The notes beneath the pieces were generated by a model that saw only the letters and a program-made list of their open reading frames with translations, did no database searches and was not told the origin of the DNA. The position numbers and the translations under genes are program-made. This document shows, piece after piece, positions 16,601 to 24,026 of a stretch of DNA of 64,000 bases (positions within the stretch are counted from its first letter, which is position 1; each line of letters begins with the position of its first letter). Source of the stretch: Desulfomonilia bacterium (lineage in GTDB: Bacteria > Desulfobacterota > Desulfomonilia > UBA1062); assembly GCA_963664325.2 (NCBI GenBank), contig CAXXDQ010000003.1:32001-96000 (forward strand), given 5' to 3'.

Positions 16601-19215
16601 AAGGTTCAGAGGTCAGGGAAAAGTTTCTCAGGTATTTCGAGGAAAAGGGACATACAATTGTCAAAAGTTCATCATTGGTGCCGGGCGACGACCCGAGCCT
16701 TTTGTTCACCAATGCCGGTATGAACCAGTTCAAGCCGGTTTTCCTGGGCAGTGAAACCCGGCCGTATACCAGGGCCACTACAGCACAGAAATGCGTGCGT
16801 GCAGGCGGCAAGCACAATGACCTTGAAAACGTCGGGTACACGGCCAGGCATCATACTTTTTTTGAGATGCTCGGCAACTTCTCCTTCGGTGATTATTTCA
16901 AGGAAGGCGCTATCGTTTATGCATGGGATATCCTCACAAACGTCTATAAGCTGGATGCCGGACGGCTTATTGCGAGCGTTCATCACACGGACGATGAAGC
17001 GTATGACATCTGGCGCAACAGGATAGGTGTGCCTGAAGAAAGGATCGTTCGCCTGGGCGATAAGGATAATTTCTGGTCCATGGGTGATACAGGGCCATGC
17101 GGGCCGTGCTCGGAGATAATATTCGACCAGGGGCCGACGGTCGGGTGCGGCAGAAAAGAGTGCAACGTGGAATGCGGTTGCGACAGGTTTTTGGAGATAT
17201 GGAACCTGGTTTTCATGCAGTATGACAAGAAGGCCGACGGCACAATGACCCCCCTGCCGAAGCCGAGCATAGATACCGGAATGGGGCTTGAACGGATAAC
17301 GGCAATACTTCAGGGCGTTCCCAGCAATTATATGACAGACCTTTTCATGCCTCTGATCGGGTTTACCTCAACTCTAGCCAACAGGGAATACGGCAATGAC
17401 CCGGAAATGGACACTTCCGTAAGGGTGATAGCCGATCATGCAAGGGCCTGCGCATTCCTTATAAGCGACGGGATACTTCCCTCCAATGACGGCCGCGGAT
17501 ATGTATTGAGGCGTATAATCAGGCGCGCCTCGCGCCACGGCAGGTTCCTCGGCATAGACGGCGCATTCCTGCACAAGGTGGCCATGAAGGTTGTTGAGGA
17601 GTTCGGCGGAACATACCCTGAACTGGCTCAGCGCAGGGATTTTATCGACAAGGTCATTGCCAATGAAGAGGAGCGTTTCCTCGTGACTCTGGATAAAGGA
17701 CTTGCCCTCCTGTCCGAGGCCATGTCGGATTTAAAGCCGCAGGCCTTGATTGACGGTGCAACAATATTCAAGCTCTATGATACCTTCGGCTTTCCCCTTG
17801 ACCTCACCGAAGACATTGCAAGGAGAAAAGGTTTCGGAATAGACCGGGAAGGCTTTGATGCCCAGATGGAACTCCAGCGTGAAAGAGCGCGTGCCGGCAG
17901 CTCGTTTGCTGATGCCGACTCAGGGAAAAACATATTTTCAGAAATGGAAAAGACGCGGTTCGTGGGGTATGAAACGCTTATAGAAGATGCGGTGGTCAAG
18001 TCTATTTTATCTGCTGATAATATCGAACCGATCGATATCCTCACTGCCGGACAGACAGGCCTGGTGATAACCGACAGGACCCCGTTTTATGGAGAATCAG
18101 GAGGCCAGGTGGGAGATACCGGCATTATTGAGACCGGCGGGTTTGAGGCCGTCGTCACAGACACGCTAAAGAAGGAAGACGTGATCCTTCACAAGGTCAG
18201 TGTCACAAAAGGCTCCCTCAAGGCAGATACCGGGGTTAGGTTTGTTGTCGATGCCGCCAGGCGAAAGGCCATTGCCCGACATCACAGCGCAACGCACCTG
18301 CTCCAGAAGGGAATTCGGGATGTTCTCGGGACACATGCTCATCAGAGCGGGTCCTACGTAAGCGATGAAAGGCTGAGATTCGACTTTACTCACTTTGCCT
18401 CTCTGGAAAAGGATGATATCGCCAGGATTGAAGACATTGTAAACGGCCTTGTGCTGGCCGACCTTCCCATATGCACTGAACTAGCGGCCAAGGAAGACGC
18501 CATGTCAAAGGGCGCCATGGCGCTGTTCACCGAAAAATATGCAGACGAGGTAAGGGTTGTTACAATGGGAAATGGCGTCTCTGTCGAACTCTGCGGCGGT
18601 ACGCACGTAAGAACCACCGGCGAGATAGGCCTTGTCAAGATAATATCGGAATCAAGCGTTTCTGCAGGCCTAAGGCGCATCGAGGCTGTTGCCGGGCTTT
18701 CTTCTCTCAGGTACCTGAGAGAACTGGACAGCATGGTAAAGGCATCGGCAGATGCACTTAAATGCGCTATCCCTGATGTACCCGAGAGGATAGCCTTGCA
18801 GCATGCCCGCCTGAAAGAACAGGATGCGAAAATCAAGGAACTGAACATAAAAATTGCAACCGGCACGGGCACCGGCGGCGAAGAGGAATTAACCCTCGAT
18901 TCCTTTAAGGCAGTCATAAAAAGGGTTGCGGCCGAGGATATTCCGCAGCTCAGGGAAGTGGGCGACAAAATAAAGGAACGTATCAAATCGGGCGTTATAT
19001 TTCTGGCGGCACCCGGCGGAGACAAGTCGACTTTCATGATAATGCTGACAAACGACCTTTCGGGAAAACTGGATGCCGGCGCTATAATGAAAACCATCCT
19101 GGCAGAAGTTGGAGGCCGCGGCGGAGGAAAGGCGCTTTTTGCACAGGGCGGGGCCGATGCCGGTAAGCTTGAGAATGCAATCAATGCATTTAAAACAGCC
19201 ATAAAGGGGGCATGA
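16597..19215 (+). CDS. alaS: Alanine--tRNA ligase
   Basis: LLFTNAGMNQFK, ARHHTFFEMLGNFSFGDYFK, DTGMGLER, HSATHLL, ELCGGTHV, GGRGGGK. Confidence 0.98.
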   Translation: MKGSEVREKFLRYFEEKGHTIVKSSSLVPGDDPSLLFTNAGMNQFKPVFLGSETRPYTRATTAQKCVRAGGKHNDLENVGYTARHHTFFEMLGNFSFGDYFKEGAIVYAWDILTNVYKLDAGRLIASVHHTDDEAYDIWRNRIGVPEERIVRLGDKDNFWSMGDTGPCGPCSEIIFDQGPTVGCGRKECNVECGCDRFLEIWNLVFMQYDKKADGTMTPLPKPSIDTGMGLERITAILQGVPSNYMTDLFMPLIGFTSTLANREYGNDPEMDTSVRVIADHARACAFLISDGILPSNDGRGYVLRRIIRRASRHGRFLGIDGAFLHKVAMKVVEEFGGTYPELAQRRDFIDKVIANEEERFLVTLDKGLALLSEAMSDLKPQALIDGATIFKLYDTFGFPLDLTEDIARRKGFGIDREGFDAQMELQRERARAGSSFADADSGKNIFSEMEKTRFVGYETLIEDAVVKSILSADNIEPIDILTAGQTGLVITDRTPFYGESGGQVGDTGIIETGGFEAVVTDTLKKEDVILHKVSVTKGSLKADTGVRFVVDAARRKAIARHHSATHLLQKGIRDVLGTHAHQSGSYVSDERLRFDFTHFASLEKDDIARIEDIVNGLVLADLPICTELAAKEDAMSKGAMALFTEKYADEVRVVTMGNGVSVELCGGTHVRTTGEIGLVKIISESSVSAGLRRIEAVAGLSSLRYLRELDSMVKASADALKCAIPDVPERIALQHARLKEQDAKIKELNIKIATGTGTGGEEELTLDSFKAVIKRVAAEDIPQLREVGDKIKERIKSGVIFLAAPGGDKSTFMIMLTNDLSGKLDAGAIMKTILAEVGGRGGGKALFAQGGADAGKLENAINAFKTAIKGA

Positions 19216-19793
19216 TGAGAAAGGCGACAGTTAAAAGAAACACAAAAGAGACCGATATTGCAGTAACCGTAAACCTTGACGGCGGAAAATGCCTCATCGA
19301 CATACCGTCCGGATTCCTGACACACATGCTGGACTCTTTTGCCAGGCATTCGGGCATGGGGCTCACCGTGAAGGCGCAGGGGGATATCCAGGTGGATATG
19401 CACCATACGGTCGAGGACATAGGCATTGTGCTCGGGCAGGCTATAAGGGACGCCCTTGGAAGCAAAAAAGGCATAAACAGATACGGTTTTGCAAAGCTCC
19501 CCATGGACGAGGCCCTTGTGGAAGTATCTCTTGACCTTTCGGGCCGGCCTTATTTCATGATACACGGCGAAGAAGATTTTTTCGGACAGGTGGGAGATAT
19601 TGAACTTGACCTAATACCTGAATTCCTGAAGGCGCTGGTCTTCAATGCAGGCATCTCCATGCATATGAGCGTGATCTCTTCCGGCAACGCCCATCATCTG
19701 GCCGAGTGCTGCTTCAAGGCCTTTGCAAGGGCGATAAGGGATGCGGCGGCAATCACCGGGGAGGATGTGCCATCAACCAAGGAAGTCCTTTAA
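19212..19793 (+). CDS. hisB: Imidazoleglycerol-phosphate dehydratase
   Basis: RNTKETDI, DMHHTVEDIGI, PMDEAL, NAHHLAECCFKA, PSTKEVL. Confidence 0.96.
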   Translation: MMRKATVKRNTKETDIAVTVNLDGGKCLIDIPSGFLTHMLDSFARHSGMGLTVKAQGDIQVDMHHTVEDIGIVLGQAIRDALGSKKGINRYGFAKLPMDEALVEVSLDLSGRPYFMIHGEEDFFGQVGDIELDLIPEFLKALVFNAGISMHMSVISSGNAHHLAECCFKAFARAIRDAAAITGEDVPSTKEVL

Positions 19794-20035
19794 GGTATCT
19801 GCACACCAGAGTCAGAACAAAAGATTCGAACAGGCATCCGGGCAGGCCAGATATGGTCGAACTTGAAGGGGTGATGACCGAGGTCGAGGATATAATCGAC
19901 CGCTGGGTTTCCGCACACAAAGACCCTGAGGATTTTCCGAGCGAATACTGGAAGATAAAGGTGTCGGGAAAGAAGTATATTCTCATGTACAATACGCTGT
20001 TTGACAGCTGGTGGCTCAAGGAGTGCGAGAAATGA
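19790..20035 (+). CDS. Small hypothetical protein between hisB and hisA (start uncertain)
   Basis: Frame fills the gap exactly and its stop overlaps the hisA ATG; pattern RP...G....V..IIDRW...YWKIKVSGKKYILMY...WWL. Confidence 0.6.
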   Translation, partial: LRYLHTRVRTKDSNRHPGRPDMVELEGVMTEVEDIIDRWVSAHKDPEDFPSEYWKIKVSGKKYILMYNTLFDSWWLKECEK

Positions 20036-20748
20036 TCGTCATACCTGCAATCGATTTGCACCACGGGAAGGTGGTCCGGCTTAAAAAGGGCGATTTCAAT
20101 GCGGTTACCATTTACAGCGATTCGGTTGCTTCAATCGCCAGAACCTTTGAAGAGGCGGGCGCCAGTCGCATCCATGTGGTCGACCTCGACGGCTCGCTTG
20201 AGGGCAGGCGCATAAATGCCGATTCGATAAAGGCGATATGCGATGCAGTGAATGTGGAAGTGGAGCTGGGCGGCGGGATAAGGACGCTGGCCAATGCCGA
20301 TGAGGCGTTCGGACTGGGCGTGTCCTATGTTATTTTAGGGACCGTCGTTATAAGTGATCCTGAAGCCGCAAAAGAGATACTCAGCGCCTTTCCGGGTAAG
20401 GCGGGCCTCGGGATAGACGCCAGGGACGGCAAGGTCGCCACGGCGGGCTGGACAGAGACCTCAACCATGGATGTCCTGGAGGTTGCAAGGGAGTTCGAGG
20501 ATTCGAATCCCGCCTTCATAGTCTATACCGATATCAGCCGCGACGGCATGCTGACAGGCCCCGATGTCGAGGCGACTGAAAAACTGGCCTCATCGGTTAA
20601 GACGCCGGTTATAGCCTCGGGCGGCGTGTCGAGCCTGGAGGATCTGATTGAACTCAACAAAATAAAAGGCCTTTATGGCGCGATAACAGGCAAGGCCATA
20701 TATGAAGGCAAACTCGACCTGAGACAGGCCATTAAAGATATAAAGTAA
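20032..20748 (+). CDS. hisA: ProFAR isomerase
   Basis: IPAIDLHHGKVVRLKKG, IHVVDLDG, GGGIR, YTDISRDGMLTGPD, ASGGV. Confidence 0.96.
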   Translation: MIVIPAIDLHHGKVVRLKKGDFNAVTIYSDSVASIARTFEEAGASRIHVVDLDGSLEGRRINADSIKAICDAVNVEVELGGGIRTLANADEAFGLGVSYVILGTVVISDPEAAKEILSAFPGKAGLGIDARDGKVATAGWTETSTMDVLEVAREFEDSNPAFIVYTDISRDGMLTGPDVEATEKLASSVKTPVIASGGVSSLEDLIELNKIKGLYGAITGKAIYEGKLDLRQAIKDIK

Positions 20749-20790
20749 CATTTTCATTTAAATAAAGGCATGATGTGACAAAGTTTTGAT

Positions 20791-20857
20791 AGAACTGGAC
20801 AGGGATAAAGAACTCAAAAGTAAAGTCGGCTCTATTTTGTCAAGAATAAAGGCCTGA
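20791..20857 (+). pseudogene. 3'-end remnant of a paralogous Y1 transposase, including the right terminal repeat
   Basis: 60/67 nt identical to 22102-22168 with the last 26 nt identical; translates ELDRDKELKSKVGSILSRIKA* vs ELDKDKKLKRKVETILSRIKA*. Confidence 0.85.
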
Positions 20858-20886
20858 TACGATAGGTTCACAGGGGTGGGTAGATA

Positions 20887-21123
20887 TTGATGATTACATG
20901 TTCAAAATGCGGTACAAGTTATAAACATATTAAAAAGGAGACAATGGGATGGATATTGCTTTTGTTTGAACTACTATTTATTTGTTTGTTTGGTATGATA
21001 AATATCGTTGATTCTATTCTCATAATTCCTGGAATATATTGGATAATTACAAAACCATCAAAGAAGTTTATTTGTAGAAAATGTTGTCCAAATGGGAAAT
21101 TACCAGTGGAGCCAAGGGTGTGA
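20887..21123 (+). CDS. AT-rich small membrane protein with a split Zn-ribbon (CxxC - hydrophobic hairpin - CxxC); probable cargo
   Basis: CSKC...long hydrophobic segment...CRKC; G-rich RBS-like sequence upstream; visibly AT-rich. Confidence 0.6.
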   Translation: MMITCSKCGTSYKHIKKETMGWILLLFELLFICLFGMINIVDSILIIPGIYWIITKPSKKFICRKCCPNGKLPVEPRV

Positions 21124-21180
21124 TACCGACCGATAATGTGTCACCCCAATTTGAAAAGTTATGCAGCGAACCAAATGGTG

Positions 21181-22168
21181 TCAGGCCTTTAAGCTTGACA
21201 ATTCTGTTGATTGGGTTTAGGTTTTTGACATGGGAAGGCCGTTGAGAATCGAATATCCCGGAGCACTGTATCATATAGCCAGCCGGGGCAACGAAAGGTC
21301 GGACATATTCAGGGATGACGCCGACAGATTGAAGTTTCTGGACATGCTCAAGGATTACCATGAAAGGTTCGGCATCCTCATTCATTGCTATGTATTGATG
21401 GATAATCATTATCATCTTGTCGTTGAAACCCCCATGGGCAATATCCTCAAGGTGATGCACGGACTCAACAGCGGGTATACGGGATATTTCAACAGAAAAT
21501 ACAATCGGTCGGGACATCTTTTCCAGGGCAGATACAAGGCGGTCATTGTGGATAAGGAAAGCTATCTGATCGAATTGTCCAGATATGTCCACCTCAATCC
21601 GGTCAGGGCCGGGATGGTCGAACATCCCGAACAGTATGCCTGGAGCAGCTATAAGGGGTACTTGCAGAAGAAGGATTCATCAGACTGGGTGGAGTATTCC
21701 TGGATTCTGGGGGCGTTCGGGAACAGAAATCAGCGCAGGCATTACAAGGAATACGTATCACTGGGAACATCAGAAAGCCCGATGAAAAAACTTTACGGCC
21801 AGATCGTGCTTGGCTCCGAAGAATTCATATCAAGACTAAAAAAGGTATTGCCGAAGGACAGCGGCGAAGGGGTATTGAAGAAGAGGCAATTAAATTCCTG
21901 TTCCGATCCGCATACGATTCTTAAGATAACCGCCGAAGAGTTCGGTATGACACCTGACGAGCTGAAGACGAAGGGCGTTCACAGGGATACCGCAATATAT
22001 CTTGTGAGGAGATATTCCGGGCTGGGCAACAACGGGACCGGCGAGTTGTTCGGTGGCATGCATTATACGGCAGTGAGCAGGCTGTGCACCGGTTTTTCAA
22101 AAGAACTGGACAAGGACAAAAAACTCAAAAGAAAAGTCGAGACTATTTTGTCAAGAATAAAGGCCTGA
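21181..22168 (+). mobile_element. Y1-transposase element bounded by 21-bp imperfect terminal inverted repeats
   Basis: Left TCAGGCCTTTAAGCTTGACAA (21181-21201) vs reverse complement of right TTGTCAAGAATAAAGGCCTGA (22148-22168): 19/21. Confidence 0.75.
21230..22168 (+). CDS. HUH Y1 tyrosine transposase (RAYT/IS200-like) with a C-terminal DnaA domain IV-like HTH
   Basis: YHIASRGNERSDIF, LMDNHYHL (HUH), GHLFQGRY, RYVHLNPVRAG (catalytic Tyr), WSSY; tail AEEFGMTPDELK...RDTAIYLVRRY...GELFGGMHYTAVS. Confidence 0.92.
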   Translation: MGRPLRIEYPGALYHIASRGNERSDIFRDDADRLKFLDMLKDYHERFGILIHCYVLMDNHYHLVVETPMGNILKVMHGLNSGYTGYFNRKYNRSGHLFQGRYKAVIVDKESYLIELSRYVHLNPVRAGMVEHPEQYAWSSYKGYLQKKDSSDWVEYSWILGAFGNRNQRRHYKEYVSLGTSESPMKKLYGQIVLGSEEFISRLKKVLPKDSGEGVLKKRQLNSCSDPHTILKITAEEFGMTPDELKTKGVHRDTAIYLVRRYSGLGNNGTGELFGGMHYTAVSRLCTGFSKELDKDKKLKRKVETILSRIKA

Positions 22169-22181
22169 CGTTAAAGGTTCC

Positions 22182-23516
22182 TTAAAAAAGATAGTAGCGC
22201 AGCCAGATATAAAGCATCGAGATAATTACCGACTCTATCATCAGCGGCATGCCGTAGAGCATGAAACGCATAAATGTTACAGGCCTGCCCATCTTTTCTG
22301 CGATGCCGACGACAATCACATTGGCTGATGCCCCTATGGCGGTGCCGTTGCCGCCGAGGCAGGCGCCGAGCGCCAGCGACCACCATACGGGCATAAGCCC
22401 CTGGTTGTGAAGAAGGGCGGCACCCGAGAGATCAGGCCAGAGCTGTTTCGCCATGTCTATTATGAGCGGGTTCATGGTCGCCACATAAGGGATGTTGTCC
22501 ACAAAGGCCGAGGCGAATGCGGAAAACCACAGCACGGCCATGCTTGTCCCGAACAGGTTTCCGTGGGTCAGGGCCAGGAGCTTTACAGAAAGCCATTTGA
22601 TAAGCCCCACCTTTACAACGGCGCCGATTATTATAAAGAGCCCTATGAAGAAGAACAGGGAACTCCATTCAACCTCGGCGAACAGCCTGTGAGGATCTTT
22701 AGTCCCGGATATGAGCAGCAGGCAGGCGGCCCCAGACAGGGCGATGGTGGCCGGTTCCATATGAAGTGTGCCGTGAAAGACAAACCCGGCCATTGTCAGT
22801 ATGATGACAACCAGAGATTTTATAAGAAGCCTTCTGTCTTTGATGGCCTCCTTTTCATTCATTGCCATGACGCGAAGTCTCAGCTCCTCCCTGACCGTAA
22901 GCCTTTTTGCAAAGACGATCCACAGGGTGAGGACATAGGCCGCAAGGATGATCATTATCACCGGTGTGAGATTATTGATGAAGTCCATGAATGTGAGGCC
23001 CGCCTTTGAGGCTATCATTATATTAGGCGGATCACCGATGAGCGTTGCCGTCCCTCCAATGTTTGAGGCTATCGCCTCAGTAATCAGATAGGGCACCACG
23101 TCGATCTCAAGCGCCTGGCATATGAGCAGGGTCACCGGTGCTATCAGCAGCACGGTGGTGACATTGTCGAGAAAAGCCGAGATGATGGCCGTCACAACAG
23201 AGAAGATGGCCATTATCCTGAAAGGCCTGCCTTTTGCAAGTTTTGCGCTTTTGATGGCGATGTATTCGAAAACGCCTGTAGGCCTCATTATGTTGATTAT
23301 CACCATCATGGCGAAAAGAAGGAATATGACGTTCCAGTCCACGCCGAATTCCGTTGAATGGAAAGCCTCTTCCTGGGTGAGAATTCCCAGTACTATGATT
23401 AATGAAGCACCGGCGAGCGCCACTACTGTTTTGTGAATTCTCTCCGATATTATCAGGGCATAGGCTAAAATAAAAACAGCAGTTGCCATAATGAAAACGG
23501 GTGTGAAGCTTATCAT
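22182..23516 (-). CDS. ArsB/NhaD family anion/cation transporter
   Basis: SAFLDNVTTVL, ASNIGGTATLIGDPPNIMI, SAFVDNIP, GGNGTAIGASAN; many TM segments. Confidence 0.9.
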   Translation of the reverse strand: MISFTPVFIMATAVFILAYALIISERIHKTVVALAGASLIIVLGILTQEEAFHSTEFGVDWNVIFLLFAMMVIINIMRPTGVFEYIAIKSAKLAKGRPFRIMAIFSVVTAIISAFLDNVTTVLLIAPVTLLICQALEIDVVPYLITEAIASNIGGTATLIGDPPNIMIASKAGLTFMDFINNLTPVIMIILAAYVLTLWIVFAKRLTVREELRLRVMAMNEKEAIKDRRLLIKSLVVIILTMAGFVFHGTLHMEPATIALSGAACLLLISGTKDPHRLFAEVEWSSLFFFIGLFIIIGAVVKVGLIKWLSVKLLALTHGNLFGTSMAVLWFSAFASAFVDNIPYVATMNPLIIDMAKQLWPDLSGAALLHNQGLMPVWWSLALGACLGGNGTAIGASANVIVVGIAEKMGRPVTFMRFMLYGMPLMIESVIISMLYIWLRYYLF

Positions 23517-23546
23517 TTCAGAAACAGGTCCTCTAAAACACATTCT

Positions 23547-24026
23547 TTATTCCCCGTTTTTTCCAGCTATTGCATCGGCAACAGTAAAGAATATGTCGGA
23601 TTCATACAGCATGCCCGTAAGCCTTCCCTCCGAATCAACCACGGGCAGCGTCGAGATGGAATACCTGAGTATATGGTCGACGCACTCCATGAGAGGGTCG
23701 TCTTCCTTAACGGCGGTAGCGGGCGGGTTCATGATCTCTGAAATCTTTTTGCCGGAGGCTTCCTTTGCGAGCGTTTCGAGCATCCCGTCCCAGGTGAAAA
23801 GGCTCAGGTCTGAAAGTGATAAGTATGACGGGTAAACGGCCCTTAATATGTCCCTTATCGAAACAATGCCTGCCAGCTTTCCATTATCATTAAGCACTGG
23901 GAGGCTCTTTGATGAAGAGGTCCGGTCCTGTTCGCGGTGGGTCCTCAGCATCAATACAAAATCTTTTATCTCGTGTTCGGGTTTCAGGTAGAGCGAAACA
24001 GGGACCATAATGTCATGTGCTTTCAT
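23547..24026 (-). CDS. CBS-domain pair protein
   Basis: LPVLNDNGKLAGIVSIRDIL and LPVVDSEGRLTGMLYESDI. Confidence 0.88.
   Translation of the reverse strand: MKAHDIMVPVSLYLKPEHEIKDFVLMLRTHREQDRTSSSKSLPVLNDNGKLAGIVSIRDILRAVYPSYLSLSDLSLFTWDGMLETLAKEASGKKISEIMNPPATAVKEDDPLMECVDHILRYSISTLPVVDSEGRLTGMLYESDIFFTVADAIAGKNGE

Follow-up and report, generated by a model that had tools for sequence, protein, structure and literature searches.

Downstream of hisA in a 64,000-nt stretch of DNA from a Desulfomonilia bacterium (contig CAXXDQ010000003.1; the whole stretch is called the window here, and coordinates without a prefix refer to it), positions 21167-22180 probably constitute a TIRtron, that is, one TIRYT gene between inverted repeats of its own, each about 34 nt long. 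The names TIRYT and TIRtron denote RAYT-like genes flanked by terminal inverted repeats (TIRs), as described in the available text of Di Nocera, De Gregorio and Rocco (2013, PMC3733652). The gene in the window encodes a protein with a RAYT-like Y1 domain, an HUH motif and a catalytic tyrosine, and it has terminal inverted repeats on its two sides, not palindromic REPs. Copies of the repeat occur elsewhere in the genome (33 units in 19 clusters), a trait of some TIRYTs, and the protein carries the Bac_DnaA_C-like C-terminal extension that characterizes subclass 2.1.2 of the HUH Y1 enzymes. The element is ordinary for its kind and lies in a variable spot beside hisA. The features of the locus are listed below, where IRL and IRR are the left and right terminal inverted repeats, ORF is open reading frame, and nhmmer hits are given on contig C3 of the genome that carries the window (G000).

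20011-20748: HisA-type gene (PF00977, E 1.3e-75)
20749..20783, no strand: post-hisA ancestral spacer of 35 nt, which holds AAAGGCATGA (20764-20773); its letters are partly shared with congeners
20784..20869, plus strand: right-end stub of an older related element, 86 nt (repeat finder and nhmmer unit C3:52833-52869, E 2.5e-07)
20870..21166, plus strand: low-GC spacer X, 297 nt, between the outer ends of the two repeats; holds ORF78
20887-21123, plus strand: ORF78, 78 aa, small membrane protein with a split CxxC...CxxC zinc ribbon
21167..21201, minus strand: IRL, full unit, outer part GGTGTCAGG (nhmmer C3:53169-53204, E 1.6e-09)
21230..22168, plus strand: TIRYT gene, 312 aa (Pfam/NCBIfam and family profile)
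22148..22180, plus strand: IRR (nhmmer C3:54144-54178, E 7.4e-06)
22182-23543, minus strand: convergent CitMHS-type transporter (PF03600, E 1.8e-92)

The TIRYT protein and its terminal inverted repeats

A first-pass annotation, made from the letters of the window, had recognized a Y1/HUH gene whose product ends in a helix-turn-helix (HTH) resembling DnaA domain IV, and both assignments held. The Pfam family Y1_Tnp matched aa 13-121 with 51.6 bits against a cut-off of 23; the HUH motif is H60-Y61-H62 (21407-21415) and the catalytic tyrosine is Y119 (21584-21586). The DnaA-domain-IV-like HTH lies at about aa 228-286 (21911-22087), where Bac_DnaA_C scored 24.2 bits (E 3.5e-05), which is under its cut-off of 31.5. 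A profile of 14 homologues matched solved DnaA chains in domain IV at positions 208-321 (best 8btg, E 1.6e-08), and PF08299 was annotated on 120 of the 120 homologues listed. The AlphaFold2 model, calculated from a 14-row alignment, had a mean pLDDT of 50 and was confident solely at residues 223-312. H60, H62, Y119, and the C-terminal S308 and K311 (the SxxK tail) were invariant in the 14-homologue alignment. In the same alignment, we observed that this invariant Ser and Lys tail (SxxK, followed by T/A/G and the stop) is encoded by the right repeat (22148-22168), and its conservation may be due to the DNA site rather than to the protein's own sake.

The two repeats were detected as a 22-nt inverted pair with 91% complementarity (21180-21201 versus 22148-22169). 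The 21-mer with up to three mismatches occurred three times in the window, as compared with a mean of 0.00 and a maximum of 0 in 100 dinucleotide shuffles. The pair had first been described as 21-bp inverted repeats matching at 19 of 21 positions; the pair itself withstood the chance test, but its true length is about 34 nt, the genome-wide repeat unit being TTGTCAAGnnTnAAGGCCTGACACCtTTtGGTTC. Because the unit has this length, the similarity between the upstream stub and the gene continues 12 nt past both stop codons. The stop codon was correctly placed within the right repeat: IRR encodes ILSRIKA and the TGA at 22166-22168, and it ends 1 nt short of the transporter stop codon. The GTGTGA/GTGTCA motifs are all present (at about 21119, 21139, and 21178); the last of them belongs to the outer segment of IRL.

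The sequence TTGACA is found inside IRL (21195-21200), 30-35 nt ahead of the ATG. It resembles a -35 box, and this position suggests a leaderless or near-leaderless transcript. An Rfam scan of 19000-24000 at E<=1 gave zero matches, so the repeats are not a known RNA. Contigs of four sequencing runs, all from one sample, contain the stretch, and no RNA run was listed for it. Contigs from two of these public runs ended or started within the left repeat (21171-21199), as expected of a dispersed repeat.

Inverted repeats proved to be a family-wide feature. By a scan of genome contigs, we fetched 80 of roughly 600 matched loci, which span Nitrospirota, Desulfobacterota, Omnitrophota, Planctomycetota, Acidobacteriota, and other phyla. 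After exclusion of 14 loci (contig edge, no stop found, or a gene shorter than 290 aa), 66 were examinable, and in each the 160 nt upstream were paired with the 90 nt around the stop codon at a score threshold of 12 or more. An inverted repeat was present in 58 of the 66 loci, as against none in a mid-gene window (0/66, maximum score 10) or in shuffled downstream sequence (0/66, maximum 11). The search for a conserved end motif among homologues, which the first-pass annotation had proposed, was thus answered in the affirmative: 56 of the 58 repeats have a GGGTCA-type start, and the right repeat wholly encloses the stop codon in 53 of them. Exact TTGACA was located within 130 nt upstream of the gene in 39/66 loci, and in 14 of those it starts 30-40 nt before the start codon.

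The repeat family and the congener comparison

The genome contains five full-length paralogues of the TIRYT (100, 64, 42, 41, and 36% identity, the first being the window gene) together with fragments. Four of the five are framed by an inverted repeat, the right repeat of paralogue 2 being degenerate (score 9). The left and right repeats agree within a paralogue and differ among paralogues, that is, they co-vary. Paralogue 3 is framed by a pair that begins with GGGGTCAGCCC and ends with GGGCTGACCCC (GGGGTCAGCCCTTGACATGGGACA with its complement), and the paralogue on contig C7 is framed by a 30-nt pair of the GGGGACGCTGATGATAA type. This second repeat family counts 12 copies at up to two mismatches; the paralogue it frames has 333 aa (G000:C7:133627-134715), and inverted doublets of the same type were seen at C5:181085/181131, C5:182374/182416, C7:53490/53531, and C7:543806/543847. 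As a separate observation, paralogue 3 (G000:C8:78000-89500) stands beside genes for Asn-synthase-like, PqqD, and HPr-kinase-like proteins, which resemble a lasso-peptide cluster; this gene set sits between the right repeat of the paralogue and a doublet (79610/79743) resembling a miniature inverted-repeat transposable element (MITE), with a DDE insertion sequence (IS) near it.

The window repeat itself is a dispersed, mostly intergenic family with internally deleted MITE-like copies and hairpin doublets. An nhmmer profile at E<=0.01 recovered the 33 units mentioned above, including doublets and groups, and 27 of the 33 lie outside every ORF of 100 aa or more. Three MITE-like copies, consisting of a left repeat, a short 5' gene stub, and a right repeat, were found on contig C3 at 126.5k, 844.5k, and 1032.9k. 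The doublets are about 70 nt long, and the one at C4:490958-491029 folds at -20.2 kcal/mol (z -6.3).

We compared the hisA-transporter interval among the genome and three congeners (G001, G002, and G003), in all of which the repeat family occurs. The hisA identity is about 85-86% for all genome pairs except G001-G002 (91%). An empty-site check of this interval in relatives, as had been recommended at first pass, was successful: in G003, the gap between hisA and the transporter gene is 36 nt, i.e., the site is empty. G003 carries a TIRYT gene at a different locus (G003:C2:130-1118), which is 87% identical to 21182-22169 of the window, with nothing similar beyond. The unit is therefore discrete, since it is absent here in one congener and present elsewhere in the same congener, with the homology stopping at the repeats. 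To judge from this comparison of sequences, the element appears to be mobile on an evolutionary scale.

The same comparison dated the debris in front of the element. What had been noticed as a 67-bp remnant of a paralogous 3' end (20791-20857 versus 22102-22168, 60/67 identical) is real and extends to 86 nt at 83% identity (20784-20869 versus 22095-22180, repeat finder). It consists of about 53 nt of a gene 3' end, whose frame still reads LDRDKELKSKVGSILSRIKA before a stop, followed by a full repeat unit (20837-20869). G002 has an orthologous stub after hisA; its similarity to the window stops at 20859, 2 nt past the stub TGA, and the gene downstream is for a different transporter, CitMHS_2. 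At the same site, G001 has an unrelated 1.44-kb insert (L020:1137-2575, GC 0.41) with two ORFs of 147 and 262 aa, neither of which matched a family in a Pfam search; a TIR-like sequence in this insert, TTCAAGTCCTGACAT, had an E-value of 0.096 and was taken as chance. Accordingly, the stub predates the arrival of the intact element, the interval is a hotspot, and the repeat ends serve as rearrangement breakpoints.

The letters between hisA and the stub had been assigned as a degenerate end motif, AATAAAGGCATGA (20761-20773). These letters are present, and they match the repeat core at 81-88% over 16 nt. However, AAAGGCATG follows hisA in G002 and in the empty-site spacer of G003 (G001 retains only TTTAAAG), so we take AATAAAGGCATGA as ancestral spacer and not an element end. 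Alternatively, 20764-20783 may be a degenerate left repeat, which would make the stub a MITE-like unit; the G003 empty site has the same letters. A resemblance of the G003 spacer to the start of the stub was short and was judged a low-complexity coincidence. Lastly, a 788-nt contig present in two runs was examined as an excision or circle product. In it, 20815-20857 connects directly with 21170 and the sequence that follows, 312 nt being left out. Upstream of this joint it does not have the letters of the window, so we assign it to another stub-plus-repeat locus and do not count it as evidence of excision or of a circle.

Several points weigh against a mobile TIRtron at this locus. The nearest paralogue is 64% identical and the genome holds no near-identical second copy, so recent transposition is not shown here. 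At the nucleotide level, the G003 copy (87% identical) has diverged about as much as hisA (85.6%), and long vertical residence therefore fits as well as mobility. The flanks of three doublets are not conserved in the congeners, where the repeats alone matched. The outer motif of the window left repeat, GGTGTCAG, deviates by one mismatch from the published GGGGWSAS (that of paralogue 3 is GGGGTCAG), and the strict motif occurs upstream in just 26/66 surveyed loci. Folding of single repeats was no more stable than that of shuffled sequence (z -1.08 to +0.81, the former being the value of IRL, in which a scan found an 8-pair hairpin including a G-T pair), and REP-like hairpin recognition is not supported for single units. 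The promoter scan called no promoter in the left repeat, and the literature searched contained no biochemical test of any TIRYT, the term being limited to works of 2013 and 2018.

In another explanation, the gene is a domesticated resident, immobile like group 2/3 RAYTs, kept by the host or by the repeat population, and acting only on the dispersed doublets, while ordinary rearrangement produced the differences among congeners at the site. Purifying selection on the gene (dN/dS of 0.146 against the G003 copy), the near-equal divergence of that copy and hisA, the occurrence of one intact or a few diverged genes per repeat type with no identical copies, and the presence of the repeat family in all three congeners would agree with it. 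It is difficult to reconcile, however, with copies at different loci in G000 and G003 whose homology ends at the repeats, with the empty site in G003, and with five paralogues and several 5' and 3' stubs in one genome. In addition, other genomes have fragment copies 98-99.6% identical to the local gene, and such near-identical stubs beside intact genes indicate recent activity at the ends of whole elements. We thus regard a domesticated gene as unlikely and retain the TIRtron as the preferred explanation.

Element pieces and the genes between them

The first-pass annotation had further proposed that the element builds integron-like cassette arrays, with the AT-rich 78-aa ORF upstream of it as trapped cargo. 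The ORF is present (20887-21123), and the GC content of the region is indeed low (0.34 in 20870-21174 versus 0.48 in the TIRYT gene and 0.55 in hisA), but the ORF has the outer end of a repeat on either side and hence falls outside any repeat-bounded unit. Spacer X had no match in the 30 relatives searched and is unique in the genome; it is unrelated to the equivalent spacer at paralogue 2, and both are single-copy. A word-index search gave no relatives of ORF78, and we considered it an orphan until a full HMMER search of 1.84 billion representatives returned 18 proteins at E<=0.001 (best identity 60%). Most of them have 71-91 aa and three are longer (159-972 aa). When 15 of the 18 were aligned with ORF78, C5, C8, C63, and C66 were invariant in 16/16 rows, around two hydrophobic stretches, which identifies ORF78 as a real, rare gene. 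We also observed a weak match to TIGR04104 (E 0.0022). Of 401 genomes sampled from the phylum, 3 have a member of the family, this genome and one weak match included. The ORF78 alignment was too poorly conserved for a metagenome scan, and the single protein was used as the query instead. At four other loci with ORF78 relatives (three of them near-identical metagenome contigs), neither a TIRYT gene nor a repeat was present at a distance of up to about 3 kb. ORF78 is thus a real but unrelated small accessory gene outside the element.

Each element of the survey was compared by BLAST with its own flanks of 2.5 kb. Extra element-derived pieces were found in 15 of the 66 loci, the other 51 being plain, and the genes between the pieces were mostly ordinary (LptF/G, ParA-like, DsbA, LrgB, lytic transglycosylase, and DDE IS). 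Three loci were suggestive. On a contig of a Desulfuromonadaceae metagenome-assembled genome (MAG) (L056, 1-3720), genes for RelB/ParE, PIN plus RHH antitoxin, and YoeB lie among repeated left-end stubs; four copies of the left repeat occur at intervals of about 900 nt, the final two in tandem, and two of them include a 5' stub of the TIRYT gene (96-98% identity to the intact copy). At L065:3406-4751, a DUF4172-Fic/DOC gene stands between two direct 96-nt right ends with 95% mutual identity, each comprising the last 70 nt or so of the TIRYT gene and the repeat, in a layout that mirrors the stub-X-element order of the window. In L029, HigB/HTH genes lie between element pieces. The intervening genes are heterogeneous, 51/66 loci are plain, and ORF78 is outside the unit; these data do not form an integron-like ordered array, and cassette building of this type is not supported as a family trait. 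Because arrays are sporadic, we leave cassette building as a minority reading.

In a refined form, that reading makes the element a capture platform. The right ends (roughly the final 70 nt of the gene together with the repeat) would be recombination sites that capture foreign DNA, either when a circle of the element plus a neighbor integrates at a resident right-end stub or when two direct right ends excise the DNA between them; the outcome would be arrays of stubs and small accessory or toxin-antitoxin genes, i.e., HUH-driven gene capture. Translocatable units of IS26, ISCR elements, and integron cassettes offer parallels. The window has a corresponding A-B-A layout, in which a stub is followed by low-GC spacer X with its real gene and then by IRL, gene, and IRR, the two direct right ends being 1311 nt apart. 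The right end-Fic/DOC-right end order of L065, the toxin-antitoxin genes among repeated left-end stubs in L056, and HigB/HTH between pieces in L029 are in line with it. So are the stub or MITE-like copy that lies within 0.3-3.7 kb of all three elements of the window repeat type in this genome, and the break in synteny between G000 and G002 2 nt after the stub TGA. Nevertheless, the 51 loci without an extra piece within 2.5 kb, the mostly ordinary genes where pieces do exist, the two comparable loci in this genome with their unrelated, single-copy spacers, the ORF78 relatives at four loci with no TIRYT gene or repeat nearby, and the lack of uniform cassette orientation and spacing all argue the other way. 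Moreover, toxin-antitoxin genes and IS debris often co-occur in variable regions anyway. Gene capture is, in our judgment, quite improbable as the explanation of this locus. We read the debris around the TIRtron as the result of nearby re-insertion and decay in variable regions.

The convergent gene downstream of the element had been labeled NhaD at first pass; its best score is instead to CitMHS (PF03600), and the label was changed.

Relation to known systems, proposed mechanism and meaning

The use of TIRs in place of hairpins is not new: it received its name in 2013, and its link with the DnaA_C/HTH tail was made in 2018. According to the available text of the former work, many TIRs share GGGGWSAS, some overlap the 3' end of the gene, and TIR families occur in genomes as singles, dimers, and groups (PMC3733652). 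According to that of the latter, 20/26 TIRYTs fall in HUH Y1 subclass 2.1, group 2.1.2 has Bac_DnaA_C, HTH_23, or HTH_28-like tails, and subclass 2.1 is equated with TIRYTs, the repeats of which are described as unlike DnaA boxes (Quentin et al., 2018, PMC6006769). In literature from 2018 onward, we found nothing newer on TIRYTs.

As far as the described TIRtrons can be judged from these texts, the window element agrees with them in having a RAYT-like Y1 gene with flanking TIRs rather than REP palindromes, an outer motif close to GGGGWSAS, a repeat overlapping the gene 3' end, copies elsewhere as singles, dimers, and groups, and several TIRYT genes with different repeats in one genome. It differs in the one mismatch of GGTGTCAG to the motif and may differ in its host, a Desulfomonilia-type MAG, a name taken from an 88%-identical protein. 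By its domains, the long Y1 protein with a Bac_DnaA_C-like C-terminal extension would belong to subclass 2.1.2; the available text of PMC6006769 states that no REP-like sequences were found near the genes of this group, whereas the window repeats form a dispersed family. What we add, namely, the count of stop codons within the right repeat (53/58), the MITE-like stub derivatives, and the empty-site comparison, is detail and not a new kind of element.

RAYTs with their REPs (REPtrons) belong to the same nuclease superfamily and likewise consist of a gene flanked by a presumably mobilized repeat; REPIN-like inverted doublet hairpins and a mostly intergenic distribution are further likenesses. 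The present element differs in that its single units are not palindromes, its protein is about twice as long, with an HTH tail and several paralogues in the genome, and the NCBIfam model REP_Tyr_transpos scores 73.9 bits, under the equivalog cut-off of 80. With TnpA of the IS200/IS605 family, such as those of IS608 and ISDra2, it shares Y1_Tnp, the HUH motif, the single catalytic tyrosine, and, presumably, single-strand cutting and rejoining. In IS200/IS605 elements, hairpins lie subterminally and inverted repeats are lacking; their TnpA has about 130-150 aa and no HTH, and their copies are usually near-identical, whereas here we found a protein of 312 aa with an HTH tail, inverted repeats, and a next paralogue at 64%. 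Integrons and capture of the IS26/ISCR type are only loosely similar, in that a few loci have stubs with an end resembling a recombination site next to small foreign genes. Unlike in integrons, there is no ordered one-directional array, the intervening genes have no common site structure, and the pattern is not family-wide.

By analogy with IS200/IS605 TnpA and TnpA-REP, the Y1 domain would cut and rejoin single-stranded DNA at the repeat ends, and the HTH tail would provide repeat-specific binding, which at first pass had been proposed to act on double-stranded DNA. The enzyme may also mobilize repeat-only derivatives in trans. If TTGACA in the left repeat is a -35 box, binding there would be expected to repress the gene itself. 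New copies may tend to insert beside existing repeats, which would leave tandem debris.

The results leave the picture of TIRYTs as a kind unchanged, and the cassette idea was shown not to be a family trait. TIRYTs form a very large family, with at least 7808 protein clusters matching at E<=0.001, and the question they pose is how an HUH nuclease with one tyrosine acts on plain inverted repeats in place of hairpins. The locus described here is a clean test case for that question, as it offers 34-nt ends, an empty site in a congener, MITE-like substrates, and a right repeat that encodes the protein tail and the stop codon.

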